Source: an uncultured bacterium
Lineage (GTDB): Bacteria; Fidelibacterota; UBA2242
Assembly (NCBI GenBank): GCA_964589175.1
Contig: CAZPRY010000010.1
Location: forward strand, 62,000 to 102,743
Reading direction: 5' to 3'
Length of the DNA: 40,744 nucleotides
In this document: positions 4,999 to 40,744 of the stretch, piece by piece
Layout of the letters: every line of letters begins with the position of its first letter
Position numbering within the stretch: the first letter of the stretch is position 1
The notes under the pieces: model-generated
The model's database searches: none
What the model was told of the DNA's origin: nothing
What the model saw: only the letters and a program-made list of their open reading frames with translations
Position numbers and translations under genes: made by a program

Positions 4999-7900
4999 AT
5001 GAGTAGAAAAGATCTACGACTTATGACGAATGAATCGACTAAGAATATCTTTCCACTGACGTCCAATCAAAAGTTGATTTGGAGCGAACAGCGGATTTAT
5101 CCGGTATCACCGCTGTACAATATTTGCACCTACATCGCCATAGACGGATTTGTCGATCCTGATTTGTTGCAGCGCGCAACTCAGATCGTGATCGATCAGA
5201 ATGATGCATTGCGTCTGCAATTTCTGGAAATCGATGACGAGCCTTATCAGCAGTTTCTTCCTCACCTTTCATACCAGCAGTCGAGTCTCGATTTCTCCGG
5301 CGAAGACGAACCCGTTCAGGCTTGTCTGGACTGGATGCAGACGCAGAATGAACGGTGTCTGGACATTAGCAGTGCTCCTCTTTTTCAGGCGGCATTATTA
5401 AAAGCTCGCCCTCAGCAGTTCTTCTGGTATTGCAAGATTCATCACCTGATCAACGACGGTTGGGGAAACCAGGTTCATATGCGGAAGATCACGGAAGCCT
5501 ACAATGCGCTGCTCCATCGAACGGATAGCTCTCCGGGCTTCCCGTACCGGGATTACATCGCAGCAGAATCGAATACTACCGATGCCAGGGATGACCGAAA
5601 AAGTATGGCTTTCTGGCGGGAGTATTTAAAACCATTGCCGCCGGCCCTTTTCAGGCAGCGCCCGGATCGGAAAAACATTAAAGCAGCCCGGACGTCCGCG
5701 CGTCAATCGCTCTCGATCTCCCGGGACCTGTATAAACGATTGTCCGATTTTGCGGCGGATCGGGAAATTTCGTTGTATCATCTATTTCTGAGCGTGATCT
5801 ATCTGATTTTCAGTCGTCTTCGCGATACCCGGGATCTAATCATCGGTCTTCCGGTTCTCAATCGCTCCGGGCAGAAGCACAAGTCGGGTTTAGGGCTGTA
5901 CACCGGAGTTTCATTGCTGAGAGTCCGACCGGGGTCCGGAGAGACCATAGCGGAAATAGTGACGTGGATACGATCGGAACTCCGCCGGATCTACCGTCAT
6001 CAGCATGTACCGTTATCAAAGATCAGATGGCGTTTATTTTCCAAAGAAGCGAACAAAGTGACCTTGTCCAGTCTGTCGGTCTCCTTTCTGGATCACCACC
6101 TGGGCCTTCGATTCGGTGAGGCTGTCGGGCAACTGAGAACGCTGTCCAACAACCATCAGCAGTTGCCGCTGACGATTTATATCCTCAAATATGATGATTC
6201 CGCAGACGCCCAGGTTGAATTCGATTATCACCTGTCCTATTTTACGCCGCAGGAAATGGCGCGAATCACCGGCCGCTTTTCGGAGACTCTCAATCTGGTT
6301 ATGGATAATTATAAAAAGCCGATCGATCAGATCGATATATTTACGCAGGAAGACAGAGAGCTGCTGGTCGGTTGTTCTGGTCCGGGGAGGTCAACGCTTC
6401 CGAAAAATGAAAGTCTTGCTGAACCGTTGAGCCAGGTGACGGAGCCAGCCAGCGGGCAGTCTGCCATCATGGTTGAGCGAGACGATCAAGCTCAGTGCGA
6501 AACGAACAGCGCCGAAACCAGATTAATCAATCTCTGGAAAAAAATCTTCATTCGAAAAAAAATCGGCAGAGACGATCATTTCTTCGAAATCGGTGGCCAC
6601 AGCCTTCTCGCGACGCGTCTCGTATCCATGATACGGACTGAATTTCAGGTTGAAATTCGATTGATAAGTATTTTCGATAATCCTGTTCTAAAGGATTTGG
6701 CCGTCCGGATTAGTTCGCTGGAAAAGGCCGCCAGGCGTTCTATACCGGTTGCAGATCAGAAAGCCTTCTATCCGGTCACTCCTCAGCAGCAAAATCTCTG
6801 GATTCTGTCCCATAAGCCGGGCGCCGGCAATATATACAATATTCCGATGGCCTTTCAGATTGGCGGAGGGATTGATAAAACCGCATTAGAGTCGGCTTTC
6901 CAGTCGATTGTTCAGAGGTACGAGATTTTACATACGGTGTTCATCGAAGAGGATGGTGTTCCATTTCAGCGCGTACTGGAAGATTATGGTTTCCATCTGA
7001 TCGAGCATGATTTGCGTCACGAAGCCGATAAAGAAGCTGCGGCGCGGCAAATTATCGAACAGTATGCCACAGAAAGATTTGATTTAGAACAGGGTCCCCT
7101 ACTAAAAGTGATTTTGCTGGAGTTGGAAAAGAACCGGCATGTACTGCTGATCAATATTCATCATATCATCATGGATGGTTGGTCTTGCGAAATATTGCTC
7201 CGTGAGCTCTCCGCGGCATATCGAAATCTGCCGCCATCGAGTACCGCTCCTTTGCTTCAATATAAAGATTATGCTGTCGGGCACGATCGTAAGCTAAGCG
7301 ATGGATCGCGGGAGACGCAACACGAGTACTGGAAAACCAAACTTAGCGGGGATTGGCTCCCGCTGGCCCTGCCGATGGATCACCCCCGACCTGCCCTTAT
7401 GACTTATCGCGGCGACCGGCTGCGACTGAATTTGCCTTCCGGTATTACCCGGGCTTTAGGCAATTTTGCCAGGACTCACGATACCAGCCCTTATATGCTC
7501 CTCACCGCCTTGGTCAAAATATTACTTTATCATTACAGCGGCCAGGACGATATCGTAGTCGGAACAGTGAATTCCGGAAGAACATCTGAAGAATGTATCG
7601 ATATCATAGGCTATTTTGTCCAGACGCTGCCATTACGGGATCAGGTAATTCCGGAAGAGCACTTTTCGCTCCTGCTCCAACGCGTGAAACAGACGATTCT
7701 CGAGGCCGACGCCAACCAGGACTATCCGTTTGAACGGATTGTTAAGGATTTGGATTTGCCGCTTGATCCTTCCCGTAATCCGCTTTTTGACGTATTTATT
7801 TCATATCAGGATAGTGAAGATTTTAAACTGGAATTGAAAGCACTAAGCGTCGAGAAATACGAGTTCGCCTATCCGATCAGCAAGTTTGACCTGAGTTTCG

Positions 7901-10900
7901 TTTTTGAGCAACGTGGCGAAGATCTTGCCCTGGATATCGAGTTCAATACGGATCTTTATCGACGTGACCGGATCGAGCGAATGGCCGGGCATCTGATTGA
8001 ACTTATTCGAAATGCGATGGCGCATTCGGATCGCCGTATTATGGATCTGTCGATCTTAAGTAAACGGGAGCGAGAGCAGATCCTGGATGAGTTTAATCAC
8101 GCTTCATCATCATCCCCGGATGACCGAACGATTGTAGAATTATTCCAGGAGCAGGTGCTAAAGTCTCCCGATCGGACCGCGGTGGAATTCGGGCAAAGCC
8201 GGATCAGTTATAGAGAATTGGATGAAGAGGCTGAAAAAGCAGCCCATCGTCTCCGCGAACAACATCGGGTTCAACCGGGAGATATTGTCGCTGTACTGCT
8301 GGAGCCATCCGAGCGATTTATCATCTCTATAATGGGAATTTTGAAAGCGGGTGCAGCCTATCTGCCGATCGATCCGATGGCTCCGACTGAGCGGGTTCGG
8401 TTCATGTTGCGTGACAGCAGCAGCGAGGTGTTAATCAGCGATGTCGCCGGTTTGCAGGAGGTCGATGCAATTCCTGATTTAATCGTCGTGGATATTGATG
8501 AAGTACGAACGAGCGAATCCCAAATCGCAAAGAACCATGAATCCCGCGCCCCAAAAGCGGGTCCCGATGATCCGGCATATATGATCTATACTTCGGGTAC
8601 GACCGGCTTCCCGAAAGGGGTGCTGATCGAGAATCGCTCTCTGGTGAATCTCATTTACGCTCAAAAACGCCAGATAGGTTTTACGCAGGACGAACGGCAT
8701 CTCTTGTTCTTTTCGATCTCATTCGACGGATCGGTTTTCAATATTTTCCTGGCCCTGCTTAGCGGCGCTTGCTTGTTGATCCCGAAAAAAGAAATTCTGC
8801 TGGAGCCGGAAAACTTTTGCCAATTCCTGGTTGATTCCGGAACAACTTCACTGATCGTAACGCCTTCTTTTTTACATCAGTTATCCCGGGAAAAATTTCC
8901 GACAATCCGGTGGATCGGTACCGGCGGCGAGCCGGTCATCGCGGAAGACGTTGCTTACTATAGTGCCCGGATGGATTACTTTAATTTTTATGGGCCGACC
9001 GAAGCCACAATCGTGGCGATCAGCTGCCGATTAACGCCGGAGAGCAGCCAACGGGATCTGATTGGAACCCCGGTAGATAACTGCGACATCTTCATACTGG
9101 ATGAATCGATGAATCTGCGGCCGGTCGGGATTGCGGGCGAGATATGTATTGGCGGTGCCGGACTGGCAAAGGGGTACCTGAACCGACCGGAACTCACGGC
9201 CGATAAGTTCGTGACAAATCCGGTTAGGACAGGGGAACTGCTCTACCGCACGGGGGACTATGGTTGCTGGTTGCCGGACGGATCGATTGAATTCTTCGGC
9301 CGCCGGGACAACCAGGTTAAAGTGCGCGGATATCGTGTTGAGTTGGATGAAATCGTGGCGACACTGCATAAGTATCCGGGCATAAAGCAGGCGGTTGTCA
9401 CGACAAAGAAATCTGATTCCGGCAACGCGCGATTATTGGCGTATGTCTCCGGGGATCAACTGGAGCAGAATTCGAAAACGGTTGCAGAAATCAGGGATTA
9501 TCTACAAAAATCGCTACCGTTTTATATGCTTCCATCTTCCATCGTTGTCGTACCCCAAATCCCGCTCACAATTAACCAAAAGGTTGATTTTAAACGGCTT
9601 TCCGGCATGGAGGTAAAGGTCCGGGGAACGATTCCCGCGGCCGATAAAGCTGTACGGAAACTATGCGAAATTTTCGGGACCGTTCTGGGGGTCGAGATTT
9701 CCGGTATCCAGCCAGCTGCCTATTTTTTTGATCTGGGCGCAACGTCATTTGATTTAATGAAAGTTCGCGGAAGAATCAGAACTGTTCTTGGCATAGAAGT
9801 TCCCATTACGGCTTTTTTCCAACATCCGTCGATCAATGAGCTGGCCGCTTATATCGCCTCCGGTCAGAAGAAAGAAAAAATTGATCCGGTCCGGGATTCC
9901 GGAACCATCCCGAAAAAGGACAAGATCGCGATTATCGGGATGGCGGGTCGCTTCCCGGGTGCTGAAAATATTACCGAATTCTGGAACAATCTTATCGAGG
10001 GCAAAGAAACCATCCATTTTTTTACAGAGGAGGAGCTGGAAAATGAGGGCCTTCCGCCTGATTTATTCCGGGCTCCGAATTATGTAAAAGCCTTTGGAAT
10101 GCTCTCCGGAGCGGACTGTTTTGATTCCCAATTTTTCTCCTATCCCGGGTCGTGGGCGGAGTCCCTGGATCCGCAGATTCGTATTTTCCACGAAGTTGTA
10201 TATGCGGCGTTGGAAGATGCCGGGGTAGCGCCCGGCGCTTTCCCGCACCGAATTGGACTCTATGCCGGCTCGAGCGATAACTATCGCTGGAGACGATTCA
10301 TTCAAGGAGCCGGTCAAACCGGGGAAAACGAGGGCTGGATCGATTATATGCTGGCAATTCGTGATTTCCTGACGACTCATGTTGCCTATAAACTAAATCT
10401 GAGGGGTCCGGCTGTTTTTGTGCAGACCGGTTGTTCTACTTCCCTATCCGCCACTCATATGGCGTGCCGGTCTCTCCAGATGGGGGAGTGCGAGCTTGCT
10501 ATTGCCGGGGGAGTGACGGTATCGCTGCCTTACGATAAGGGCTACCATTATGAGGAGGGGATAATTTTCTCTCCGGATGGACATTGCCGTGCTTTTGATG
10601 CGGAAGCATCCGGTACGGTTCCGGGCAATGGCGCCGGAGCTGTTGTTTTGAAACCGCTGGAGCAGGCCGTCCGCGACGGCGATTACATTTATGCAGTCAT
10701 TGCCGGAACTGCGATGAATAATGACGGTTCGCTGAAAGCCGGTTTCACCGCGCCGGCTGTTGAAGGGCAGGTCCAGGTGATCCGGGCGGCCCGGCAAGAA
10801 GCCGGTTGCGATGTGGAGAGTATTGGATATGTCGAAACCCATGGTACCGGAACGATATTAGGCGATCCGGTTGAGATATCCGCCCTGGAGCAGGCTTTTG

Positions 10901-13900
10901 CTTCGGAAAAGCGGCAATTCTGTGCCATTGGATCGCTGAAAACCAATCTCGGCCATCTGGATGCAGCCGCGGGGGTGGCGGGTTTGATCAAGACCGCACT
11001 GTCCTTAAACTTTGCTAAGATTCCGCCCAGCCTGCATTTTAAAACCCCCAATCCACAGATTGATTTTGAACACAGCCCGTTCTATGTGAATACGGAGTTA
11101 AAAGAGTGGCCACGACAGGGAACGAATGCCGATCCGATTCGCAGAGCGGGGGTCAGTTCTTTCGGGATTGGCGGAACCAATATGCACATGATCCTGGAAG
11201 AGGCGCCGCGACCCGAGAATATTCCAGCAGGAACGAATCCACTGCCCCGGATTCTTCCCCTTTCCGTGAAAGATCCTGACACCCTAAACAGGATACGAAC
11301 GAATCTGGTCGATTTTCTACGCAAACATCCCCATTCCCGACTCCAGGATCTATCCTATTCTTTGCAGTTCGGACGTGAAAGCCATGTATATCGCCATGCC
11401 TTTACCGTCGTGAATGTCGAAGAGGCAATCCTAAAATTGTCAGATTCGATTTCACCGGATAAAATTATCAAGACCGACATTACGAAATCTTCCAAAATCG
11501 TTTTCCTGTTTCCCGAATCCGGAACTGATTTCCTGGCGATGGGACGCGACTTATACCGGTGGTACCCGAGATTCAGACAAGAGATAGACAGCGGTAATGA
11601 GTCGCTAAGGAAGATTGCCGGCACAGATGTAAAACCCCTGCAGATTGCCTCGGATAGTTCATTTTCATTGGACCGGGATGGGGAGGACTCCGAAATCGCT
11701 CGCCTGGTGTTGGTGATTTTCGGGTACGCCCTCGGAAAACTGCTTGAAAGTTGGGGGGTGCGCCCGGATGCCGTTGCCGGCTACGGTTTGGGAGAATATA
11801 CCGCGGCTTGTTTTTCCGGGATCATGACGCTTGATGAGGCGCTACAACTGGCGCTGGAACGAAACGAACTCCTCACACTTGCACAGGATGCGTCAACTGC
11901 CCGGCCCACAAAAAGAGTACAACAATTTTCTTTACAGACGCCCCGAATTCCTCATTTGTCAGGTTTGTCGGGGGCCTGGATCACGGATCAGGAAGCCCGG
12001 GACAGCGGCTACTGGCAGAATCGATTCAGCCAGACATCTCCTTTCGCAGCAAAGCCGCAAGAGCTCCTGGCAATCGAATACGCGATTTATATCGGGTTTG
12101 GGTCAGATAATCTGTTCACGGAAGCTTTTCAGGAGCACCCGGATCGCGGGCCGGGCCAGCAGCTCATAAATCTGTTCCCAGGTTCGGATCAGGAGAAAGC
12201 GAGTCCCGCGTATCTCCTCAATCGGATTGCGGATCTTTGGTGCATGGGATCTATGATCGATTGGACGGCGGTTTATCCCGGTCCGCATCGAAAAATTCCC
12301 CTGCCCGGCTATCCGTTTCAACGAAAGAGATTTCCCGTCAAGCCGCCGGTCACTCAGCTAAATCAGAATTTCGTGTCGGAAAAACAGGAAGAGCTGGAGA
12401 ATTGGTCCTACGTGCCATCATGGGAACGTGTCCCGTTCGGGATAGATGAAGATAGTGAAACAGTCGTGATATTGCTTTTTTCGGACGGAAATCCGCTGGA
12501 ATATCAATTCCTCGAATACTTCCGGTCCAGATCACTCAAATTTATCACGGTCGGCAGCGGAGCACAATTTATACGCAGCAGCGCTGACCGATTTTACATC
12601 CGACCGACAGAACGCGACGACTATCTGGCGCTTTTCCGGCAACTGGCCGATGAAGATTTGGTGCCGGATAAGGTAGTTCATCTTCGATCATTGGATATAA
12701 GGGTCCGGGAGTCAGAAAACCTTGAGGATGCCCTGCAGAAAAGTTTCTATGGTCTCCAGCATATCGTAGCTGCCCGGACTTCCTGCGCTATTCATAATCC
12801 CGTTTCCCTGATTGTGGTTACCGAGAATCTTTTTGAGGTTCAGGGCGACGAAGAGATCGATCCAATCAAAGCACTGGTCACGGGACCTGTTCTGACGATT
12901 CCGCAGGAATATCCGGAAATTCGGATCTCTCTTATCGATATCGATCCGCTTCAAATTCGATGGAAAGGCGCGACCCGGCTACCGGCCCGCCTGCTGGCGG
13001 AAGGTAGAGATCGCCCCGGGCATGAGATTATCGCTTATCGCGGTCGCTATCGATGGAAAAGGAAATATACGCCAATTCCGTTAAAAGAAGCTTCGCCGGG
13101 CGATCTACCGCTTCGTAATAAGGGAAGCTATTTGATTACCGGAGGCTCCGGCGGGATAGGTTTCAGCATTGCGAAATACCTGGCCGGTAGCTATCAGGCG
13201 CGCCTGGCGTTGGTGGCCCGCCGGGGAGTTTCCGATGAGATGCAACAAACGCTGAAGGAACTCGGGGCAGACGTATTGGCATTTTCAGCGGATGTTGCAG
13301 ACTACCGTGAAATGCAAAAAGTCTTTAGCGCAGTGGCGGAACGATTTGGGAGGATTGACGGAGTAATACACGCTGCGGGAGTAGCGGACGGGGCGGTTAT
13401 CCAGAATCGAACCCGGGAACAATCAGAACTGGTTCTGGAACCGAAGGTGTCGGGTACTCTGAACTTGCACAGACTGCTGGAAGGCAAACAAACAGATTTC
13501 GTCCTGCTCTGTTCCTCGCTGGCATCCGTCATACCGATTATTGGTCAGTTCGCCTACTGCTCGGCAAATGCCTTCGAGGATGCGTTTGCGAACAAAATGA
13601 GTAATTCGGGCGACACTCGTTGGTGTTCGGTCAGTTGGGACAGATGGCTGGATGTTGGCATGGCCGCCCGGTTCCTGGAAGGTCATGAAGGCGGACAGAT
13701 CGGGATTCATACGGATGCCGGAATCGAAATTTTTAAACGGATTCTGAACAGGCAAGAACCCCACATCATCATATCAACTGGAAGTCTGGATCCGCAAGTT
13801 GAAAAGCTAAGAGATACGAGATCCGTTTTTTTGGAATTGAAACACAGTGCCGGGATCAGAAATACTGAATCGATTGATGGAGAGCTTCTTGCGGATACGA

Positions 13901-16900
13901 ACCATAACCGTTCGGAAGTGAAAAATATCGTTCTGAATATCTGGCGCGACATCCTGACCCTGCCGGATCTGGACGCGGATACCAACCTGTTTGATCTCGG
14001 TGTGGACTCGCTCAAGATTATGGATGCTGAATCCAGAATTCAGAAGCAGTTCCGCAAAAAGATTCCGATGGCTGAATTTTTCCGTTTACCGACCGTTCGG
14101 GACCAGACTGCCTACCTGAGCGGTTCCGAAAAAGAGGTCTCCGATTCAATCCCTCGCCAGGCGGAAACGGCTTACTATCCTGTATCTTCTGCGCAAAAGC
14201 GATTGTTTATTCTCCAACAGCTGACAGCGGATAATATTCTTTATAATCAGCCGGCTGTGTTGCGGATTGAGGGTAGTATCGAACCCGCAAGACTGGAGAG
14301 CGCATTTCGAAATCTGATTGAGACAGTTGAGGTATTTCGCAGCTCTTTTCATCTCGTCGAAGATAATCCCGTCCAGGTCATCCATCCTCTGGAAGAGATC
14401 GATTTCCATATCGAATTTTCAAGAGTGATGGGCGAGCCCATCGATGTCGATGAAATCATGGCTGACTTTTTACAGCCGTTCGATCTGTCGAAGCCTCCTT
14501 TAATCAGGGTAAAACTGCTCGAAACGCTTACGGGGATAACGTTTCTTCTGATCGATATTCACCACATAATTAGTGATGGCAGTTCCTATATTGAACTGTT
14601 CGATAGTATTGGCAAACTCTACGCCGGAGAGAAGATCACTCCCCCCAAAATACGATTCAGAGATTATGCGGTCTGGCAGCAAAACCAGAAAGCCCTACAG
14701 GAGTATTGCGAGCAGGGAAAGTACTGGCTGAATGAATTTTCCGGGGAAATACCGATTTTACAATTGCCAAACGATTTTTGTCCCGGCACCGATCCGGATT
14801 TCTGGGGTGATCACCTGGAGTGCAGCATTGGTGTCGAGGAAACCCGGGCGATTAAAGCACTGGCCCGTGAGCGCAATACGACGCTCTTCATCGTTCTTTT
14901 GGCGGCGTTTAAAATCCTGCTGGGCAAGCTCAGCGGACAGGAAGATTTGATTGTCGGGACGCCTACGGCAGGACGCCGAAGGTCGGAGTTTCAACATCTG
15001 ATCGGCATGTTTGTCGATACCCTGGCGATTCGTAGTCGGCCCCAGAAAGAAAAGACTTTTAACGAGTATCTCAGTGAAGTGCAGGAAAAGGTTCTCAAGG
15101 CGTTTGAAAATCAGGAGTACCAGTTTGAAGATCTGGTAGAGGCGCTGAACGTTACCCGCGTCTCCGGAGAGAATCCCATCTTTAATGTCATGTTCATTCT
15201 CCAGAATATGTCAAAACCGGCGTTGTCGCTCGATAATCTGAAGATCTCGGTGCATCCCTGGAAAAAGAAGCTATCCCTGTTTGATCTTACGTTGGAAGTG
15301 ATCGAAGAGGGCGCGGAACTGCGACTCGGTTTTGAATATTCAACCTGGCTTTTTCAGCGGGAGACGATCGCTCAATATGCGGATTACTACCGCGAATTAC
15401 TTCACTCCATTGTGGCGGCGCCGGACTCACCGATAGCGGAAATTCAAATGCTGCCGCCGGCGATGCGGGAGCAGATTCTCCACGACTTTAGCAATTCCGG
15501 TTCAGCATTAGCGGAAGAAAAAACGGTCATGGAGATTTTCCACGAGCAACTGCTGAAGTCTCCCGATCGGACCGCGCTGAAATTCGGACAATACCGTCTC
15601 AGTTACCGAGAACTGGATGAAGAGGCGGAGCAAGTAGCCCATCGTCTTTGCGAACAGCATCGGATTCAACCGGGAGATATCGTCGCTGTACTGCTGGAGC
15701 CATCCGAGCGATTTATCATCTCTGTACTAGGAATTTTGAAAGCGGGAGCGGCGTATCTGCCGATCGATCCGGTAACTCCGACTGAGCGGATTCGGTTCAT
15801 GTTGCGGGACAGCTGCAGTGAGGTGGTAATCAGCGATGTTGCCGGTTTGAAGAATGTCGCTGCAATTCCTGATTTAATTGTCGTGGATATTGATGAAGTC
15901 CGAAAGAAAGAATACCAAACCGCAGAGAGCCATGCGTCCCCCGCCCAAAAAGCGAGCCCGGGCGATCCGGTATATATGATCTATACTTCGGACACGACCG
16001 GCTCCCCGAAAGGGGTGCTGATCGAGAACCGCGCGCTGGCGAATCTCGTATGTGCTCAAAAACGCAGACTGGATTTTACTTCGGATGAACGGCATCTTTT
16101 ATTCTTTTCGATATCGTTTGATGGATCGGTTTTCGATATTTTCCTGCCGCTGCTCAGCGGCGCATGCCTTGTGATCCCGAAAAAGGAAGTTCTGCTGGAG
16201 CCAGAGAACTTCTGCCAATTCCTGGTTGATTCCGGAACGACTTCGCTGATCGTAACGCCTTCCTTTTTACATCAGATACCCGGAGAAAAATTCCCGAAAA
16301 TCCGGCGTATCTGCACTGCCGGCGAGCCCGTCATCGCGAAAGACGCTGCTTACTATAGCGCCCGGATGGATTATTATTGTCACTATGGACCAACCGAGAC
16401 TACGATAATGGCAACCTGCTGTAAATTATTGCCGGAGAGCCGTGAACGGAATCTGATCGGAATTCCCATAGATAACTGCGATATCTTCATATTGGATGAA
16501 TCGATGAATCTGCAGCCGATTGGGATCGCGGGCGAGATATGCGTTGGCGGCGCCGGACTGGCGAGAGGGTACCTGAACCGGCCGGAACTCACGGTTGAGA
16601 AGTTTGTGGTGAATCCGTTTAAGACCGGGGAACTGCTCTATCGCACGGGAGACTACGGTTGCTGGTTAGCGGACGGTTCGATTGAATTCCTTGGCCGGCG
16701 TGACCAGCAGGTAAAATTACAGGGATATAGGATTGAACTCGCGGAGATTGAAAGCCGCATCATGAACTACCCCGATATCGATGGGGCGGCGGTCTTGCTC
16801 AGAGCTTCGCAGGAAGATCGGCAATTGTGGGCTTATATAATCAGCCCAAATGGAAAATTTTCCCTGGATGAGATCAGAAAATATCTGAAAGAATTCCTGC

Positions 16901-19900
16901 CCGAATATATGCTCCCCACCGGCTTTTCTCTTGTTGATAATTTTCCGCTTACGGTGAACGGGAAGATCGATCGGGACGCTCTCGCCAGATTAAGCGATGG
17001 GGAAACTCAGGTACTGACAAGTGCTGATTTTCAAATGCCTCGGAATGATCATGATCGAAGGCTGGTCAAGATCTGGTCGCAACTGCTTTTAAACGAGAAA
17101 ATCGGCCTTCACGATAACTTCTTTGAGTCAGGCGGACAGAGCCTCATGGGCGTACTGTTACTAGCAGCCATTGAACAGGAGTTTCGTGTAAAACTTCGAC
17201 TTCTCGATATTTTCCGGTACCCGGTACTGGCGGATATGTCAGATTTAATCCTCTCGCGATCCCCAAATCAGGGAAAATCCATCTCCCGGCTTCCGGCCAT
17301 GGATCACTATCCGGTTTCAAATGCCCAACGCCGTCTATGGATCTTGAGTAATATCGGAGCCGAGACCGGCGCCTATGATATCGCGGGGACCCTGTTGCTC
17401 AAAGGACAACTGAATCGTGGAGCCCTCGAACGGGCAATCCAAAGAATTGTTGAGCGACACGAATCGCTGCGGACGGTTTTCATCGTAGTTAAAGGAGAAC
17501 CGCGGCAGAAAATCCTTGAAAAACCGGATTTTCATATTCGTATAAAATCGATCGGAAATTCCTTGCAGGAAGAATTCAATCGGAATCTGAAAGAGCGGTT
17601 CGACCTGCAGAAAGGACCTCTGTTCAAGGCGATCCTTTACCCGATCGCCGATGACCGGCATATTCTTTTCATAAATATGCATCACATCATCAGTGACGGT
17701 TGGTCGATCAGCGTTTTGACCAGGGAACTGGGCCAGCTGTACGAAGCATATCTTCATGGGATCAGCGATCCGCTGGCAACTCTGCAATATCAGTATAAAG
17801 ACTACACTGCCTGGCAAAACAAGATGCTGGGCAGTGATGAGTTCGCTGAACACCGGCGTTTCTGGCATACGAAACTGGCCGGTGAGTTGCCGGTTATGAA
17901 TCTGCCGATCGATATAGCCCGTCCATCGGTTCGAAGTTTTCAGGGCGATGCGGTGAGACTTATGCTCGATAAAGCGCAGACCCGCGATTTGAACCGTCTG
18001 GGCGTAAAACAGAATGTTACTCTTTTCATAATCCTGAAAGCCCTGGTCAGTGTTCTGCTGCATCGCTACAGCAATCAGGACGATCTGATTATCGGTACCA
18101 GCGTGGCGGCCCGGGAACGCAAGGAGCTATTTGATCAGATAGGATTTTTCGTCAATACACTGGCGTTGCGAACCACGATCAGCACGGAAGAGCCTTTTTC
18201 CGTATTGCTCGAACGAACCAAGATTGAGATGCTGGATGCGTATGAACATCAATTGTATCCCTTCGATTTGCTGGTCGAGGAACTGAAAATTGAACGGGAC
18301 ATCACCCGGAATCCCATATTTGATGTCATGCTGGTACTCCAGAATAACGAGCCGATGAATCTGGTTTTTGGTGGGCTGGTTTGCGAGGAGACCGATCTTG
18401 ATTATGCTTTCAGCAAATTCGATCTGACATTTAACTTCCGCGAAATGGACGGCGACCTGAAACTCAATCTGGAATATAATACGGATATTTTCCATCGTGA
18501 GCGAATTGAACGAATGGGCGGCCATTTCGAGATGTTGGTGAAGGAAGTACTCCGCGATAGCGACTGTCCGATTGGTAAATTACAGCTGCTGACCGCGTCC
18601 GAAACGCAGATGTTGCTGGGGAGATTCGGAGAGCCGGAAGTCGTTTTTCCGGTTAAAGAGACCATCGTATCAATGTTTCGACGGCAGCTGGCGCAACGCG
18701 CGGATGCGACGGCGCTGCTCTATCAAGATCGCGAAATGACCTATCGCGAACTGGACGAGCGCTCGAACGCCGTCGCAGCACGATTGAAAACAGTCGGAGC
18801 TCTCGAGTCAAATAAAATTGCCGCAGTCATTCTCGATCGTTCGGATCTGGCTGTCGCAGTATTTTTAGGTATTCTGAAAGCGGGAGCGGCCTACCTGCCG
18901 ATCGATCCGGATTATCCACCGGAACGGATTCGCTATATGCTGGCCGACAGCGCCGCTACGGTGCTGATCACCGAGGAGAAGCATTCCGGGGAAGCACGGA
19001 AAATCATTGGCGATTCGCTTTCGGTATCGGAAATTATCGAGATTGAAAAGATTGATAGCTCTCCGGAATATAAAGAGGAACATTTTAATTCCGATACCGC
19101 GGCCTACATCATCTACACCTCCGGGTCGACTGGAAAGCCCAAGGGCTGCATTATTACACATCGAAATCTTATCTCCCTCATTTTTAATGATCGCTTTCCG
19201 TATAAATTCAGTGCGGACGATGTCTGGATCTCCGCTCATTCGTTCTGCTTCGATTTTTCGGTCTGGGAGATGTACGGGGCGCTCCTTTTCGGCGGGCGTT
19301 TCGTGATTATATCGCCGGACGAAGTACGCAGAACGGATCGCTTTCTGGATTTGCTGATCGAACACCAGGTTACCGTCCTGAATCAGACCCCAGGCGCTTT
19401 TTATAATTTGATCGAGGTTGAGAAGCAGCGCGAGTCTCACGATCTGGCCGCGCATCTGCGTTACGTGATTTTCGGCGGAGACCGCCTCGATCCGCACTAT
19501 CTGAAGCCCTGGCTGAAGAACTATCCGCTCAACCGGATTTCTCTGATCAACATGTTCGGCATAACCGAAACCACCATCCATGTCACCTATGGTCCTCTGA
19601 CGGAAAAGGATATTCTCGCATCAACGGGTACGAGTCCGATTGGAAGGCCGTTACCGGATCTGAATGTCTATCTGTTCGATGAGCAGATGAACCTGGTACC
19701 CGTGGGTGTACCCGGGGAGATTTGGGTCGGTGGTCCGCAAGTCAGTCCCGGCTACCTTAACCGTCCGGATCTAAACCGGGAGCGTTTTATCACCTCGCCT
19801 TTTAAGGCAGGGGAGACGCTCTACCGCAGTGGCGATCTCGCCGGATGGAATTCGGATGGCAGCCTCGAGTATCTGGGGCGCAATGATCACCAGGTTCAAG

Positions 19901-21054
19901 TACGCGGATTTCGAATCGAACCGGCCGAGATCGAGCGCATGCTGTGCATGATTCAAACCGTTGAACAGGCCCTGGTGCTTTATCGTGAAATCCAGGCATT
20001 CGGACAGTCACGCCTGGCGTTGATTGCTTACCTGACTTCGGAAAATGACATCGACCAGCGTAAGTTGCGCCGGGAGCTCAAGGAATTCCTGCCGGATTAT
20101 ATGATTCCCGAATACTTTATCCGTCTTGGGGAATTTCCGCTTACTTCGAATGGGAAGATCGATCGCAAAGCGCTGCCGCTGCCCGGTCAAAATCCGGTCG
20201 AATCGGCATCATCCGCCCTTCCCGGCAGTGATTTGGAACGAGAAATTCTGGAGATTTGGCAAGAACTACTGGGCATCCGGGAGATCGGCGTCTATGATAA
20301 CTTTTTTGAGATCGGCGGCAGTTCGCTGCTGATTATCCAATTGCATTCCATTATTGAGGAGAAGTACCCCGGTAAAACCCGGATTACGGATCTGTTTTCG
20401 CATGCGAATATAGCAGCGCTGGCGGATTTCATTTCAGGCGCTGAAGAGGAAATGTCAAATGTAGCGGAGCCCCTGTTGTTTCCGGCGCGATATTTTGGCC
20501 GGATCCGGGGTGAACCGAGCGAGTTCCGGTTTGAGATTAAAGATGATCTCTATCAAAAGATTCGAGATCTCTGTTCGAACGGATCGATCGGATGCCTGGA
20601 TTTTTACGTAAGCGCGGTCATCTATCTTCTGTATGAAATTACGGAACAGGATCAGATCCAGCTGTTAATGAATTTGGCCGAAGCGGATGCATGGTATCTT
20701 TTCAAACTTGATCTGGCGGCGATCGATGGTGTGACCGAGTTGATTAAATTCGTGAAAGAGTCGCGGAATCGCAACGGCGATGGCACCCGGTGGGAAGATC
20801 TACAGGGACAGTATGAATTTACTGCGGATCACCACGTGGTTCCGATGATCCGCTTTAATTCCTCGAATCGCACGGCAGTACGAGGTCGACAGACAGGTGA
20901 TTTTTACCTGGAATTTTCCGAAAAGCGCGATCGACTTGAGGGTGTTTTACAGTGTGGCGATCGGTTCAATCGAAAGATGATCAGAGGTATTCTGGATCTG
21001 TATATGGAAGTCCTGCAATCGTTTTTACAAGAAATAGAACATGAAATTCGTTAA
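4999..21054 (+). CDS. Hybrid NRPS-PKS megasynthetase: C-T | C-A-T | KS-AT°(degenerate)-KR-ACP | C-A-T | C-A(Thr)-T-[C-terminal ~210-aa region]
   Basis: Uninterrupted 5351-aa ORF. Condensation HHxxxDG motifs: HHLINDGWG, HHIIMDGWS, HHIISDGSS, HHIISDGWS. Adenylation cores: YTSGTTGFPKG, YTSDTTGSPKG and YTSGSTGKPKG, plus YGPTE, YRTGD and NGK/NQK motifs. Carrier Ser motifs: GGHSL, LGATSF, LGVDSL, GGQSL, GGSSL. KS motifs: TGCSTSL, HGTGT, NLGHL. KR: GGSGGIG and YCSAN. Start uncertain (ATG 4999 or ATG 5023); no strong SD for either. Confidence 0.95.
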   Translation: MSRKDLRLMTNESTKNIFPLTSNQKLIWSEQRIYPVSPLYNICTYIAIDGFVDPDLLQRATQIVIDQNDALRLQFLEIDDEPYQQFLPHLSYQQSSLDFSGEDEPVQACLDWMQTQNERCLDISSAPLFQAALLKARPQQFFWYCKIHHLINDGWGNQVHMRKITEAYNALLHRTDSSPGFPYRDYIAAESNTTDARDDRKSMAFWREYLKPLPPALFRQRPDRKNIKAARTSARQSLSISRDLYKRLSDFAADREISLYHLFLSVIYLIFSRLRDTRDLIIGLPVLNRSGQKHKSGLGLYTGVSLLRVRPGSGETIAEIVTWIRSELRRIYRHQHVPLSKIRWRLFSKEANKVTLSSLSVSFLDHHLGLRFGEAVGQLRTLSNNHQQLPLTIYILKYDDSADAQVEFDYHLSYFTPQEMARITGRFSETLNLVMDNYKKPIDQIDIFTQEDRELLVGCSGPGRSTLPKNESLAEPLSQVTEPASGQSAIMVERDDQAQCETNSAETRLINLWKKIFIRKKIGRDDHFFEIGGHSLLATRLVSMIRTEFQVEIRLISIFDNPVLKDLAVRISSLEKAARRSIPVADQKAFYPVTPQQQNLWILSHKPGAGNIYNIPMAFQIGGGIDKTALESAFQSIVQRYEILHTVFIEEDGVPFQRVLEDYGFHLIEHDLRHEADKEAAARQIIEQYATERFDLEQGPLLKVILLELEKNRHVLLINIHHIIMDGWSCEILLRELSAAYRNLPPSSTAPLLQYKDYAVGHDRKLSDGSRETQHEYWKTKLSGDWLPLALPMDHPRPALMTYRGDRLRLNLPSGITRALGNFARTHDTSPYMLLTALVKILLYHYSGQDDIVVGTVNSGRTSEECIDIIGYFVQTLPLRDQVIPEEHFSLLLQRVKQTILEADANQDYPFERIVKDLDLPLDPSRNPLFDVFISYQDSEDFKLELKALSVEKYEFAYPISKFDLSFVFEQRGEDLALDIEFNTDLYRRDRIERMAGHLIELIRNAMAHSDRRIMDLSILSKREREQILDEFNHASSSSPDDRTIVELFQEQVLKSPDRTAVEFGQSRISYRELDEEAEKAAHRLREQHRVQPGDIVAVLLEPSERFIISIMGILKAGAAYLPIDPMAPTERVRFMLRDSSSEVLISDVAGLQEVDAIPDLIVVDIDEVRTSESQIAKNHESRAPKAGPDDPAYMIYTSGTTGFPKGVLIENRSLVNLIYAQKRQIGFTQDERHLLFFSISFDGSVFNIFLALLSGACLLIPKKEILLEPENFCQFLVDSGTTSLIVTPSFLHQLSREKFPTIRWIGTGGEPVIAEDVAYYSARMDYFNFYGPTEATIVAISCRLTPESSQRDLIGTPVDNCDIFILDESMNLRPVGIAGEICIGGAGLAKGYLNRPELTADKFVTNPVRTGELLYRTGDYGCWLPDGSIEFFGRRDNQVKVRGYRVELDEIVATLHKYPGIKQAVVTTKKSDSGNARLLAYVSGDQLEQNSKTVAEIRDYLQKSLPFYMLPSSIVVVPQIPLTINQKVDFKRLSGMEVKVRGTIPAADKAVRKLCEIFGTVLGVEISGIQPAAYFFDLGATSFDLMKVRGRIRTVLGIEVPITAFFQHPSINELAAYIASGQKKEKIDPVRDSGTIPKKDKIAIIGMAGRFPGAENITEFWNNLIEGKETIHFFTEEELENEGLPPDLFRAPNYVKAFGMLSGADCFDSQFFSYPGSWAESLDPQIRIFHEVVYAALEDAGVAPGAFPHRIGLYAGSSDNYRWRRFIQGAGQTGENEGWIDYMLAIRDFLTTHVAYKLNLRGPAVFVQTGCSTSLSATHMACRSLQMGECELAIAGGVTVSLPYDKGYHYEEGIIFSPDGHCRAFDAEASGTVPGNGAGAVVLKPLEQAVRDGDYIYAVIAGTAMNNDGSLKAGFTAPAVEGQVQVIRAARQEAGCDVESIGYVETHGTGTILGDPVEISALEQAFASEKRQFCAIGSLKTNLGHLDAAAGVAGLIKTALSLNFAKIPPSLHFKTPNPQIDFEHSPFYVNTELKEWPRQGTNADPIRRAGVSSFGIGGTNMHMILEEAPRPENIPAGTNPLPRILPLSVKDPDTLNRIRTNLVDFLRKHPHSRLQDLSYSLQFGRESHVYRHAFTVVNVEEAILKLSDSISPDKIIKTDITKSSKIVFLFPESGTDFLAMGRDLYRWYPRFRQEIDSGNESLRKIAGTDVKPLQIASDSSFSLDRDGEDSEIARLVLVIFGYALGKLLESWGVRPDAVAGYGLGEYTAACFSGIMTLDEALQLALERNELLTLAQDASTARPTKRVQQFSLQTPRIPHLSGLSGAWITDQEARDSGYWQNRFSQTSPFAAKPQELLAIEYAIYIGFGSDNLFTEAFQEHPDRGPGQQLINLFPGSDQEKASPAYLLNRIADLWCMGSMIDWTAVYPGPHRKIPLPGYPFQRKRFPVKPPVTQLNQNFVSEKQEELENWSYVPSWERVPFGIDEDSETVVILLFSDGNPLEYQFLEYFRSRSLKFITVGSGAQFIRSSADRFYIRPTERDDYLALFRQLADEDLVPDKVVHLRSLDIRVRESENLEDALQKSFYGLQHIVAARTSCAIHNPVSLIVVTENLFEVQGDEEIDPIKALVTGPVLTIPQEYPEIRISLIDIDPLQIRWKGATRLPARLLAEGRDRPGHEIIAYRGRYRWKRKYTPIPLKEASPGDLPLRNKGSYLITGGSGGIGFSIAKYLAGSYQARLALVARRGVSDEMQQTLKELGADVLAFSADVADYREMQKVFSAVAERFGRIDGVIHAAGVADGAVIQNRTREQSELVLEPKVSGTLNLHRLLEGKQTDFVLLCSSLASVIPIIGQFAYCSANAFEDAFANKMSNSGDTRWCSVSWDRWLDVGMAARFLEGHEGGQIGIHTDAGIEIFKRILNRQEPHIIISTGSLDPQVEKLRDTRSVFLELKHSAGIRNTESIDGELLADTNHNRSEVKNIVLNIWRDILTLPDLDADTNLFDLGVDSLKIMDAESRIQKQFRKKIPMAEFFRLPTVRDQTAYLSGSEKEVSDSIPRQAETAYYPVSSAQKRLFILQQLTADNILYNQPAVLRIEGSIEPARLESAFRNLIETVEVFRSSFHLVEDNPVQVIHPLEEIDFHIEFSRVMGEPIDVDEIMADFLQPFDLSKPPLIRVKLLETLTGITFLLIDIHHIISDGSSYIELFDSIGKLYAGEKITPPKIRFRDYAVWQQNQKALQEYCEQGKYWLNEFSGEIPILQLPNDFCPGTDPDFWGDHLECSIGVEETRAIKALARERNTTLFIVLLAAFKILLGKLSGQEDLIVGTPTAGRRRSEFQHLIGMFVDTLAIRSRPQKEKTFNEYLSEVQEKVLKAFENQEYQFEDLVEALNVTRVSGENPIFNVMFILQNMSKPALSLDNLKISVHPWKKKLSLFDLTLEVIEEGAELRLGFEYSTWLFQRETIAQYADYYRELLHSIVAAPDSPIAEIQMLPPAMREQILHDFSNSGSALAEEKTVMEIFHEQLLKSPDRTALKFGQYRLSYRELDEEAEQVAHRLCEQHRIQPGDIVAVLLEPSERFIISVLGILKAGAAYLPIDPVTPTERIRFMLRDSCSEVVISDVAGLKNVAAIPDLIVVDIDEVRKKEYQTAESHASPAQKASPGDPVYMIYTSDTTGSPKGVLIENRALANLVCAQKRRLDFTSDERHLLFFSISFDGSVFDIFLPLLSGACLVIPKKEVLLEPENFCQFLVDSGTTSLIVTPSFLHQIPGEKFPKIRRICTAGEPVIAKDAAYYSARMDYYCHYGPTETTIMATCCKLLPESRERNLIGIPIDNCDIFILDESMNLQPIGIAGEICVGGAGLARGYLNRPELTVEKFVVNPFKTGELLYRTGDYGCWLADGSIEFLGRRDQQVKLQGYRIELAEIESRIMNYPDIDGAAVLLRASQEDRQLWAYIISPNGKFSLDEIRKYLKEFLPEYMLPTGFSLVDNFPLTVNGKIDRDALARLSDGETQVLTSADFQMPRNDHDRRLVKIWSQLLLNEKIGLHDNFFESGGQSLMGVLLLAAIEQEFRVKLRLLDIFRYPVLADMSDLILSRSPNQGKSISRLPAMDHYPVSNAQRRLWILSNIGAETGAYDIAGTLLLKGQLNRGALERAIQRIVERHESLRTVFIVVKGEPRQKILEKPDFHIRIKSIGNSLQEEFNRNLKERFDLQKGPLFKAILYPIADDRHILFINMHHIISDGWSISVLTRELGQLYEAYLHGISDPLATLQYQYKDYTAWQNKMLGSDEFAEHRRFWHTKLAGELPVMNLPIDIARPSVRSFQGDAVRLMLDKAQTRDLNRLGVKQNVTLFIILKALVSVLLHRYSNQDDLIIGTSVAARERKELFDQIGFFVNTLALRTTISTEEPFSVLLERTKIEMLDAYEHQLYPFDLLVEELKIERDITRNPIFDVMLVLQNNEPMNLVFGGLVCEETDLDYAFSKFDLTFNFREMDGDLKLNLEYNTDIFHRERIERMGGHFEMLVKEVLRDSDCPIGKLQLLTASETQMLLGRFGEPEVVFPVKETIVSMFRRQLAQRADATALLYQDREMTYRELDERSNAVAARLKTVGALESNKIAAVILDRSDLAVAVFLGILKAGAAYLPIDPDYPPERIRYMLADSAATVLITEEKHSGEARKIIGDSLSVSEIIEIEKIDSSPEYKEEHFNSDTAAYIIYTSGSTGKPKGCIITHRNLISLIFNDRFPYKFSADDVWISAHSFCFDFSVWEMYGALLFGGRFVIISPDEVRRTDRFLDLLIEHQVTVLNQTPGAFYNLIEVEKQRESHDLAAHLRYVIFGGDRLDPHYLKPWLKNYPLNRISLINMFGITETTIHVTYGPLTEKDILASTGTSPIGRPLPDLNVYLFDEQMNLVPVGVPGEIWVGGPQVSPGYLNRPDLNRERFITSPFKAGETLYRSGDLAGWNSDGSLEYLGRNDHQVQVRGFRIEPAEIERMLCMIQTVEQALVLYREIQAFGQSRLALIAYLTSENDIDQRKLRRELKEFLPDYMIPEYFIRLGEFPLTSNGKIDRKALPLPGQNPVESASSALPGSDLEREILEIWQELLGIREIGVYDNFFEIGGSSLLIIQLHSIIEEKYPGKTRITDLFSHANIAALADFISGAEEEMSNVAEPLLFPARYFGRIRGEPSEFRFEIKDDLYQKIRDLCSNGSIGCLDFYVSAVIYLLYEITEQDQIQLLMNLAEADAWYLFKLDLAAIDGVTELIKFVKESRNRNGDGTRWEDLQGQYEFTADHHVVPMIRFNSSNRTAVRGRQTGDFYLEFSEKRDRLEGVLQCGDRFNRKMIRGILDLYMEVLQSFLQEIEHEIR
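5059..6370 (+). other. Condensation domain C1 (N-terminal, starter-type position)
   Basis: HHLINDGWG at ~5441. No adenylation domain follows before the next carrier domain. Boundaries approximate. Confidence 0.8.
6505..6725 (+). other. Carrier domain T0 (PCP)
   Basis: DDHFFEIGGHSLLATRL with GGHSL at ~6592. Confidence 0.8.
6766..8095 (+). other. Condensation domain C2
   Basis: FYPVTPQQQNLW N-terminal motif; HHIIMDGWS at ~7160. Confidence 0.85.
8125..9630 (+). other. Adenylation domain A1 (substrate not assignable; pocket residues approx D-G-F-I-G-G-F-I-V-K)
   Basis: LSYRELDEEAE (A1), LKAGAAYLPID (A2), YTSGTTGFPKG (A3), FDGS (A4), NFYGPTE (A5), GELCIGGAGLAKGY (A6), YRTGD (A7), GRRDNQVKVRGYRVELDEI (A8), NQKVD (A10 K). 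Confidence 0.85.
8140..9350 (+). repeat. Intragenic direct repeat, copy 1 (A1 adenylation core), ~90% nt identity to copy 2
   Basis: Long identical runs shared with copy 2, e.g. gagatat(t/c)gtcgctgtactgctggagccatccgagcgatttatcatctct and aattcctgatttaat(c/t)gtcgtggatattgatgaagt. Shadow ORFs 8479..8700(-) and 8988..9197(-) mirror 15874..16095(-) and 16383..16592(-), offset ~7395 nt. Confidence 0.85.
9640..9850 (+). other. Carrier domain T1 (atypical Ser motif FFDLGATSF)
   Basis: YFFDLGATSFDLMK at ~9730-9760. The usual GG(H/D)S is replaced by GATS, but the Ser is kept. Confidence 0.65.
9910..11190 (+). other. Ketosynthase KS1
   Basis: IAIIGMAGRFPGA at the start; active-site Cys in TGCSTSL (~10430); HGTGT (~10840); NLGHL (~10950); GGTNMH at the end. 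Confidence 0.9.
11497..12340 (+). other. Degenerate acyltransferase-like domain (AT°): GHSxG replaced by GYGLG, GQG motif absent, small subdomain shortened
   Basis: Lies in the cis-AT position after a ~100-aa KS-AT linker. VFLFPESGTDFLAMGRDLY stands in place of FLFPGQGSQYxGMGxxLY. AGYGLGEYTAA (codons 11779-11796) stands in place of GHSLGEYxA, with the Ser replaced by Gly at 11785-11787. Ends with the post-AT linker YPFQRKRFPV (~12311). Confidence 0.7.
12390..13760 (+). other. Ketoreductase KR1 (structural + catalytic subdomains), predicted active
   Basis: Rossmann motif TGGSGGIG (~13141); catalytic Tyr/Asn in YCSAN (~13555); K/S positions plausible. Confidence 0.8.
13900..14110 (+). other. 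ACP1
   Basis: LFDLGVDSLKIMD (~14000). Confidence 0.8.
14170..15480 (+). other. Condensation domain C3
   Basis: YYPVSSAQKRLF N-terminal motif; HHIISDGSS (~14557). Confidence 0.85.
15510..17000 (+). other. Adenylation domain A2 (recent duplicate of A1; P-loop variant TSDTTGSPKG; pocket approx D-G-F-I-C-A-H-I-M-K)
   Basis: Nearly identical to A1 through motifs A1-A8. Asp codon 15991-15993 replaces the conserved Gly of TSGTTGxPKG. YCHYGPTETTIMA stands where A1 has NFYGPTEATIVA. Confidence 0.85.
15530..16745 (+). repeat. Intragenic direct repeat, copy 2 (A2 adenylation core)
   Basis: See copy 1. Identity decays after motif A8 (A9-A10 subdomain diverged). Confidence 0.85.
17040..17250 (+). other. 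Carrier domain T2
   Basis: DNFFESGGQSLMG (~17131). Confidence 0.8.
17290..18600 (+). other. Condensation domain C4
   Basis: HYPVSNAQRRLW; HHIISDGWS (~17680). Confidence 0.85.
18670..20190 (+). other. Adenylation domain A3, predicted Thr-activating
   Basis: FDFSVWE (A4) and INMFGITETTIHV (A5). Positions 235/236/239/278/299/301/322/330/331/517 read D-F-W-N-I-G-M-I-H-K, against the published Thr code DFWNIGMVHK (9/10, conservative V->I). Confidence 0.75.
20215..20420 (+). other. Carrier domain T3
   Basis: DNFFEIGGSSLLI (~20316). Confidence 0.8.
20420..21051 (+). other. C-terminal ~210-aa region of unknown function; possible degenerate C-domain fragment or an inter-protein docking region handing over to the ORF2 KS
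   Basis: No HHxxxDG, no carrier or TE motifs. GCLDFYVSAVIYLLYEITEQDQIQLL weakly resembles the central TLFMxLLAAFxxLLxRYSGQ region of C domains. Confidence 0.3.
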
Positions 21055-40690: not shown

Positions 40691-40744
40691 GCGTATTTAT
40701 AGCGAATTGCAAAAATAATGTCCGATGAATGCGAAAAAAAGGTA

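Follow-up and report, generated by a model that had tools for sequence, protein, structure and literature searches.

How is the first carrier domain of a nonribosomal peptide synthetase (NRPS) charged, if the module to which it belongs has no adenylation (A) domain? The question is raised by a window of 40,744 nucleotides (the whole stretch of DNA analysed here, from contig CAZPRY010000010.1 of an uncultured bacterium of the Fidelibacterota, assembly GCA_964589175.1), whose first synthetase gene, open reading frame 1 (ORF1), begins with a condensation (C) domain, C1, followed directly by a thiolation (T) domain of peptidyl carrier protein (PCP) type, T0. A sequence-only reading of this DNA held that T0 must be loaded in trans; it overlooked the five A domains present in the line itself, and there is a precedent, the synthetase TtmA, for loading by such in-line domains. 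We propose, by analogy, that an in-line A domain would load T0 and that C1 would then N-acylate the bound residue. This explanation is ranked first, ahead of an external A-T protein, and we regard it as an evenly balanced proposition.

Pfam and motif searches resolve ORF1 into C1-T0-C2-A1-T1-KS-AT0-KR-ACP-C3-A2-T3-C4-A3-T4 (KS, ketosynthase; AT, acyltransferase; KR, ketoreductase; ACP, acyl carrier protein), followed by a weakly C-like tail; the gene thus joins NRPS modules with a polyketide synthase (PKS) module. C1 is the first domain of the first synthetase of the line. It spans positions 3-455 of the 456 positions of the Pfam Condensation profile and its HHxxxDG motif is intact, in agreement with the sequence-only reading, which took C1 to be catalytically complete. 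T0 retains the serine of phosphopantetheine attachment (GGHSL; S535, window 6601-6603). Behind it come C2 and then A1, giving the order C-T-C-A-T at the N-terminus of ORF1. Pfam returns no AMP-binding match in residues 441-600 of ORF1, even at E <= 10. With A1 and A3 of the line as queries, tblastn detects five A domains in the window and no more; the first starts at 8116, and no frame of positions 4999-8116 contains A-like sequence. The sequence-only reading had described a complete C domain followed by a PCP with no A domain, the first A domain appearing only after a second C domain: Pfam and tblastn agree with this description, and the cryptic A domain or remnant that might have been hidden between C1 and T0 is ruled out by the Pfam search at E <= 10 together with the six-frame tblastn.

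The same Pfam order (Condensation, PP-binding, Condensation, AMP-binding) is found on contigs from six different ENA samples (assemblies ERZ27248885, -895, -897, -920, -922 and -937), which are 99.88-99.99% identical to the window. Because these six independent assemblies agree, the junction of C1 and T0 is real. None of them contains a frameshift or stop. Across strain variants the C1-T0 stretch differs by a single substitution (A170G), and selection analysis with this one substitution is uninformative.

The next question is what kind of domain C1 is. Its best match among solved structures is RzmA-Cs, the lipoinitiation domain of rhizomide synthesis (7C1H, 4.1e-42, aligned over residues 17-448), a starter condensation domain; CdaPS1-C1 is another that has been structurally characterised. 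The next-best structures, ObiF1, PvdL, Txo2 and EntF, vary in donor type, and classical LCL structures reach only about 1e-17. The top NCBIfam matches are likewise C domains with acyl or aryl donors: the N-terminal C domain of MxcG, the C domain that follows the fatty acyl-AMP ligase (FAAL) in PvdL, and EntF. When the domains of 150 giant NRPSs from an exhaustive HMMER search were rescored locally one by one, 17 of the best 20 matches to C1 outside its own protein lay at the N-terminus (residues about 2-50), and all 17 scored better with C1 than with C2. The nearest of these per-domain relatives is the N-terminal C domain of a Desulfopila NRPS/PKS. Profiles built from 83 N-terminal and 120 internal C domains of the rescored proteins give C1 373 bits against 245, a difference of +128 in favour of the N-terminal profile, while the corresponding log-odds of C2-C6 range from -35 to -85. 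C1 is about 21% identical to C2-C6, which share 28-39% identity among themselves. By four independent tests of its sequence, C1 is therefore a starter-type (lipoinitiation, acyl-donor) condensation domain, as the sequence-only reading had supposed when it likened C1 to starter domains that N-acylate a T-bound unit. It is the only starter-type C domain of the line. As C1 is of starter type and catalytically intact, N-acylation of the unit bound to T0 is the expected chemistry.

Starter C domains accept acyl-CoA or acyl-ACP directly, and acyl-CoA is the donor with which RzmA-Cs N-acylates the first amino acid on its carrier (PMC7804268). C1 resembles RzmA-Cs in alignment over the whole domain, in the HHxxxDG motif and in N-terminal position, but the domain that follows is an A domain in RzmA and a T domain in the window; an A domain also follows in all 17 N-terminal matches mentioned above. 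The RzmA residues R148, Y138, Q136 and Q36, reported to gate acyl-chain length (PMC7804268), align with Asn, Ile, Cys and Cys in C1, which suggests that the acyl pocket of C1 may be roomier than that of RzmA. Close relatives of C1-T0 as a unit were sought in three collections. A word search of 5.8 billion proteins gave six matches of <= 36% identity, none with the C-T architecture; a scan of GTDB genomes gave only matches at 20-35% identity; and the exhaustive HMMER search brought up mostly giant multi-C NRPSs, its sole close match being the protein encoded in the window itself. The collections searched thus contain no close homologue of C1-T0, the best having 25-36% identity.

The domains on the other side of the junction look unexceptional. 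T0 is nearest to T3 and T6 of the same line (44-46% identity), both of which feed LCL domains, and is merely 22-28% identical to the two ACPs of the PKS modules; by these comparisons T0 is an ordinary PCP. C2 finds its best PDB match in TycC (2JGP, 5.9e-76), its log-odds between N-terminal and internal profiles is -59 bits, and the acyl-accepting C domain of PvdL matches it at about 1e-41; RzmA-Cs was not found among its structure matches at E <= 1e-20. Judged from these matches, C2 is an ordinary LCL elongation domain. A starter C domain, a PCP and an LCL domain in succession point to an arrangement in which T0 would carry an amino acid, C1 would N-acylate it and C2 would pass the acyl-aminoacyl unit on.

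Modules without an A domain are well known. An A-less first module behind a starter C domain is rarer, yet documented in TtmA and LgnD. The closest parallel in layout is TtmA, the thalassospiramide synthetase of Tistrella mobilis, which starts C1-T1-C2-A2-T2 with A1 missing and no accessory enzyme (bioRxiv 10.1101/560987). Its authors conclude that the in-line domains A2 and A3 load T1, a claim that rests on product patterns and on mutagenesis of the sister line Ttc of Thalassospira (bioRxiv 10.1101/560987). In Ttc, products beginning with Ser were kept after knock-out of A1a, and all products were gone after knock-out of A3 or T1a; inactivation of C1 or T1a in Ttm/Ttc abolished all products, and module skipping is documented (bioRxiv 10.1101/560987). 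In-line A domains of Ttm/Ttc also serve carriers of other modules (bioRxiv 10.1101/560987; PMC5577590). The window shares with these lines the starter C followed directly by T, with no A domain between them, and then C-A-T, and the lipopeptide-type hybrid of NRPS and trans-AT PKS, for which Ttm/Ttc use acyltransferase activity of primary metabolism (PMC5577590). It also shares PKS modules whose AT is dead or absent, the lack of a trans-AT gene, a KS-DH-KR arrangement (DH, dehydratase) after a module for a hydroxy amino acid, a Val module, and a terminal module split into C and A(MT)-T-TE (MT, methyltransferase; TE, thioesterase). The TtmA cluster has no stand-alone A domain, and none was found in the window or the 11 kb downstream of it. 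There are differences as well. In the window line an additional C-A-T-KS-AT0-KR-ACP module follows the A-less one; Thr instead of Ser precedes the PKS module containing DH, which has a single ACP; the second "missing" A domain is mutated in the window, not absent; and the source is an uncultured organism of about 49% GC, unlike the Rhodospirillaceae that host Ttm/Ttc. The likeness is one of architecture only. Neither Thalassospira nor Tistrella occurs among the named matches, and the ORF2 search gave generic trans-AT PKSs.

The second documented case, LgnD of legonmycin synthesis in Streptomyces, has the order C1-T1-C2-A2-T2 and a different solution, shown biochemically: T1 receives Thr from LgnB via the type II thioesterase (TEII) LgnA (PMC8748450). 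C1 of LgnD then adds the acyl group of isovaleryl-CoA to the amino acid bound to T1 (PMC8748450). The C-T-C-A-T start, a first carrier without cognate A domain and a TEII gene in the cluster are common to both. Unlike the window, the Lgn cluster has a dedicated A-T didomain, LgnB, and a specialised Thr-shuttling TEII. LgnD-C2 is a dehydrating C* domain and C2 of the window is most like the LCL domain of TycC, though C* has no diagnostic motif. A Lgn/WS9326A-like layout was also seen on a plasmid of Streptomyces sp. NBC_00503 (NZ_CP107856.1, locus 2896-27033), where an NRPS starts with contiguous C-T-C-A-T and has directly upstream an A-T protein of 890 residues, a TEII, an MbtH gene and genes resembling type II fatty acid synthases or PKSs; the layout is common to several related Streptomyces plasmids.

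Other A-less modules charged from elsewhere include SyrE module 9 with SyrB1, WS9326A, viomycin and the yersiniabactin proteins HMWP1/2 (PMC7539972, PMC8949500), and in locillomycin (T-C-T-C-A-T-C) a carrier without a cognate A domain likewise receives its residue from an A domain in another place (PMC7539972, PMC8949500). In these systems the A-less module lies inside the line or at its end, and the A domain that lends is upstream or free-standing. In the window the A-less module is the first one, and any in-line donor must therefore be downstream. Among the 825 C domains of a biased sample of giant NRPSs, 24 have a T domain immediately behind them; 98 proteins of the same sample start C-A-T-C and at most one other starts C-T. 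The module described here thus adds an uncommon example to a kind of system that is already known, and the C-T-C-A-T arrangement is less unprecedented than the sequence-only reading implied.

Which A domains could serve T0? Specificity codes were read off along GrsA, with the core motifs as anchors, and are approximate. The code of A1, the A domain nearest to T0, is DGFIGGFIVK, without substrate assignment. Its A10 motif (9574-9591, residues 1526-1531) reads NQKVDF where NGK(I/V)DR is usual, with the catalytic lysine kept; the 15 commonest variants of A10 account for 661 counted motifs, and in 10 of these a residue other than glycine precedes the lysine. A1 and A2 share 70% of their amino acids and, over 1188 bp (8140-9320 against 15535-16716), 84% of their nucleotides, and on this similarity are recent paralogues; their codes differ at 4 of 10 positions (A2: DGFICAHIMK). 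A2 carries an unusual P-loop (15985-16014, ORF1 residues 3663-3672) in which the codon at 15991-15993 specifies Asp. The same position is Gly in all 738 P-loops of 155 other large NRPSs, and the public representative protein, identical to the window, has the A2 P-loop as given here. A2 is, to judge from this substitution, probably impaired in ATP binding, and T3 may therefore also depend on another A domain. A change that may be comparable has been engineered: TtcA-G631D is an inactivating mutation 341 residues before the A10 lysine K972 (bioRxiv 10.1101/560987). Since P-loop and A10 lysine are 324-344 residues apart in the A domains of the window, G631 is probably a P-loop glycine too. If A2 is impaired, four intact A domains remain for six aminoacyl carriers, and sharing of A domains would be a general property of the line. 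A4, in ORF2, has the Val-type code DAFWLGGTFK. That A1 alone serves three carriers, namely T0 upstream, its own T1, and T3 downstream behind the P-loop-dead A2, seems to us unlikely. If true, the line would be a natural intermediate in the progressive loss of A domains from thalassospiramide-type lines, in a lineage unrelated to the known thalassospiramide producers.

The sequence-only reading saw no free-standing A domain or FAAL in the window, and suggested a search of the flanks for a stand-alone A domain, FAAL, acyl-CoA ligase or MbtH-like gene. A scan and tblastn of the 40.7-kb window confirm its statement: neither a free-standing A domain nor an A-T didomain is encoded there, and genes for a FAAL, an acyl-CoA ligase or an MbtH-like protein are absent too. 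A further 11 kb downstream was recovered from a 54-kb contig, bringing window and downstream stretch to about 52 kb in total; in these 11 kb, no gene for a stand-alone A domain, A-T, FAAL, acyl-CoA ligase or MbtH is called. The downstream locus overlaps the window, and the sole A domain that tblastn detects in it is that of ORF3. Its genes code for an amylase, SASA-family proteins, a B12-binding protein, CobW, a URO-D-family protein and an AraC regulator. On the other side, to the left of the exporters that mark the left end of the cluster, lies an unrelated binding-protein gene, and all contigs end 0.2-0.8 kb beyond it; a metagenome scan with the binding protein returned unrelated contexts only.

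The proposed sequence of events is as follows. C1-T0 would be a functional lipoinitiation module whose A domain was lost or was never present. After phosphopantetheinylation, T0 would be aminoacylated by an A domain of the same line, either the adjacent A1 or, by analogy with thalassospiramide, the Thr-type A3. C1 would acylate the amino group of the amino acid on T0 with a fatty acyl group drawn from acyl-CoA or acyl-ACP, and C2 would condense acyl-aminoacyl-T0 with the residue loaded by A1 on T1. The remaining trans-AT NRPS-PKS line might then build a lipodepsipeptide similar to thalassospiramide, with a statine-type unit, a vinylogous Thr, a Val and an N-methyl residue, whose ring the TE would close. 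We infer the A domain that loads T0, the acyl donor and the product alike. In-line loading is ranked first because of the thalassospiramide-like layout, the TtmA precedent, the lack of a loader in about 52 kb and the change in A2.

Several points weigh against it. The results do not single out the A domain that charges T0. An experimental case for a downstream in-line A domain that loads a carrier upstream of it has been made for thalassospiramide only, and for Ttm itself the argument comes from product patterns and not from a direct assay of loading (bioRxiv 10.1101/560987). The cluster is tied to ttc/ttm by architecture alone, with neither genus among the named matches. Every contig ends about 0.3-0.8 kb beyond window position 1, in a CRISPR-like array, and coverage of the genome stops there. 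Finally, the cluster has a TEII gene, as does the LgnA shuttle system.

The last two points lead to the strongest of the rival explanations: a free-standing A-T didomain encoded elsewhere in the genome loads T0, directly or via a TEII shuttle, and C1 then N-acylates. It is possible, but we consider it on the doubtful side. LgnD has the same C1-T1-C2-A2-T2 order with T1 fed by LgnB through LgnA (PMC8748450), WS9326A has been proposed to work likewise, and the Streptomyces plasmid NRPS with A-T, TEII and MbtH directly upstream indicates that this solution recurs. The sequence covered extends no more than about 0.8 kb to the left of the window and 11 kb to its right. Yet in both the characterised and the plasmid examples the A-T gene belongs to the cluster, and none is present here in the window or the 11 kb downstream, while the left edge is formed by the exporters and then the unrelated binding-protein gene. 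Four unrelated genes stand between the synthetase genes and the TEII of the window, which has its best PDB matches in the editing enzymes ClbQ (5UGZ), RedJ, RifR and SrfTEII; it is 31% identical to the TEII of the Streptomyces C-T-C cluster. From these similarities its role is presumed to be editing, a shuttle role being also possible. C2 looks like a plain LCL domain, though the C* class of LgnD-C2 is not recognisable by motif.

A second alternative places a fatty acyl starter on T0, supplied by a FAAL, an acyl-ACP synthetase or an acyltransferase activity of C1, with C2 performing lipoinitiation onto T1. The absence of an A domain from the module would fit, and in some lines a module that loads an acyl carrier does stand ahead of a C domain (FAAL-T-C, PvdL). 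But T0 sits after C1, in the acceptor position, and resembles in-line PCPs and not ACPs; C2 is LCL-like, far less similar to the acyl-accepting domain of PvdL than to TycC; neither FAAL nor acyl ligase was found in the window; and the first T domain holds an amino acid in both characterised C-T-C-A-T starts. This explanation is very improbable. The sequence-only reading had listed a FAAL among the enzymes that might load T0; it is not to be expected in that role, because T0 is PCP-type and feeds an LCL domain and because a starter C domain takes acyl-CoA or acyl-ACP directly.

Equally improbable, in our judgement, is that C1-T0 is vestigial or routinely skipped and that the line effectively begins at module 2. 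Module skipping is documented in thalassospiramide lines (bioRxiv 10.1101/560987), and strain variation, a single substitution, is too low to gauge selection on C1-T0. Against this, C1 covers the full profile with its HHxxxDG, T0 keeps its serine, the six assemblies are free of frameshifts and stops, and inactivation of C1 or T1a abolished all products in Ttm/Ttc (bioRxiv 10.1101/560987). Without C1-T0 nothing could initiate, because C1 is the sole starter C domain and C2 needs a carrier-bound donor. That the A domain is missing through an artefact of assembly or annotation, a collapsed repeat or a cryptic domain, can practically be dismissed: NRPS genes do have internal repeats, as the 84% nucleotide identity of A1 and A2 illustrates, but the same junction stands in six independent assemblies, the linker is in frame, and neither A-like sequence in 4999-8116 nor a weak Pfam match was found.

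The features discussed are collected in Table 1; the biosynthetic cluster is compact and lies on the plus strand.

Table 1. Features of the cluster and of the A-less start of ORF1 (window coordinates)
Feature	Position	Strand	Details
Tandem cyclic-peptide export ABC transporters (two)	1616-3328, 3331-4959	+	TIGR01194, both above curated cut-off
ORF1, NRPS-PKS megasynthase	4999..21054	+	5351 aa from 4999
C1, full-length condensation domain, starter type	5044..6366	+	aa 16-456; Pfam Condensation E 9.3e-67
Catalytic motif HHLINDG of C1	5440..5460	+	aa 148-154; aligned to HHIMMDG of RzmA-Cs
C1-T0 linker, 52 residues	6367..6522	+	aa 457-508; no domain, no A remnant
T0, PCP-type carrier	6523..6702	+	aa 509-568; PP-binding E 2.9e-11
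C2, condensation domain, LCL type	6763..8085	+	aa 589-1029; HHIIMDG
A1, first A domain, nearest candidate T0 loader	8143..9582	+	aa 1049-1528
A2, A1 paralogue, probably impaired	15514..17013	+	P-loop TSDTTGSPKG
A3, Thr-type code DFWNIGMIHK	18649..20208	+	alternative candidate T0 loader, by analogy with A3(Ser) of Ttc
ORF2, KS-DH-KR-ACP-C5-A4(Val code)-T6-C6	21055..30114	+	Pfam, motifs
ORF3, A5 (embedded methyltransferase)-T7-TE, terminal module	30130..33660	+	Pfam, motifs
Type II thioesterase (TEII)	38105..38878	+	Pfam
Sfp-type phosphopantetheinyl transferase	38906..39586	+	would make T0 and the other carrier domains holo

The exporter pair lies directly 5' of ORF1. Public gene calls place the start of ORF1 at Met9 (window 5023; 5343 residues) and not at 4999, a difference that is immaterial for the domains. 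After T4 the protein ends in a tail of ~200 residues (20446-21051, residues about 5150-5351) with a faint likeness to the middle of the Condensation profile (Pfam E 0.15), which may be a docking region or a remnant at the junction of NRPS and KS proteins.

The PKS parts are most similar to trans-AT PKSs. The AT of the first PKS module, AT0 (~11500-12500; ORF1 residues 2168-2500), is degenerate: only profile positions 1-121 of 319 match, and the active-site motif reads GYGLG (11779-11793) instead of GHSxG. Pfam finds no AT in the PKS module of ORF2, which is of the trans-AT type, and no trans-AT gene lies within the window. With AT0 dead, ORF2 lacking an AT and no trans-AT gene, malonyl loading must come from elsewhere. 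KS-DH-KR stands downstream of the Thr-type A3, the Val module comes next, and the terminal module is split between C6 at the end of ORF2 and the A(MT)-T-TE of ORF3. In C6 (28786-30111, ORF2 residues 2578-3019), NHIVCDG replaces HHxxxDG, the first His being lost and the second, catalytic His kept. The methyltransferase of ORF3 is inserted early in A5 (residues about 230-353), ahead of the P-loop at about residue 487. Free-standing A(MT)-T-TE proteins like ORF3 (about 1130-1230 residues, 35-40% identity) form a large family in metagenome-assembled genomes of many phyla, with members in Parabeggiatoa, Colwellia, Omnitrophota, Opitutaceae and Acanthopleuribacter, in clusters that are otherwise different. 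ORF3 homologues were dropped as a guide to clusters of the same family, A(MT)-T-TE being common to many unrelated clusters.

Two observations concern the edges of the window. About 30-830 bp beyond position 1, on contig L037 (11314-12109) and in opposite strand orientation, there is a CRISPR-like array of at least 7 copies of a 31-nt repeat (GTTTCAATTCCACTACTGGTCTGATTTATAC) with a spacing of 65-68 nt; it reaches the end of the contig and is preceded by three tandem copies of a ~116-nt unit. All assemblies break to the left of the window, probably because of this array. At the other edge, the window past 40699 (40700-40744) diverges fully from contigs L027 and L029, which elsewhere are 99.7-99.9% identical to it, while L028 and L030 match it to the end; comparison of the four indicates a strain-variable junction.

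If T0 is indeed loaded in line, the cluster would become the second example, phylogenetically independent of the first, of an upstream starter module whose carrier is charged by a downstream A domain, and would support the view that sharing of A domains is a general route of assembly-line shrinkage, not a peculiarity of Rhodospirillaceae. The compact C-T-C-A-T fragment would also allow structural work on the way in which a carrier gains access to an A domain that is not its own. For annotation pipelines, the case is a reminder not to conclude from an A-less first module that a gene is missing. The cluster itself, from an uncultured organism, is a candidate producer of a lipodepsipeptide that would be similar to thalassospiramide and possibly inhibit proteases.

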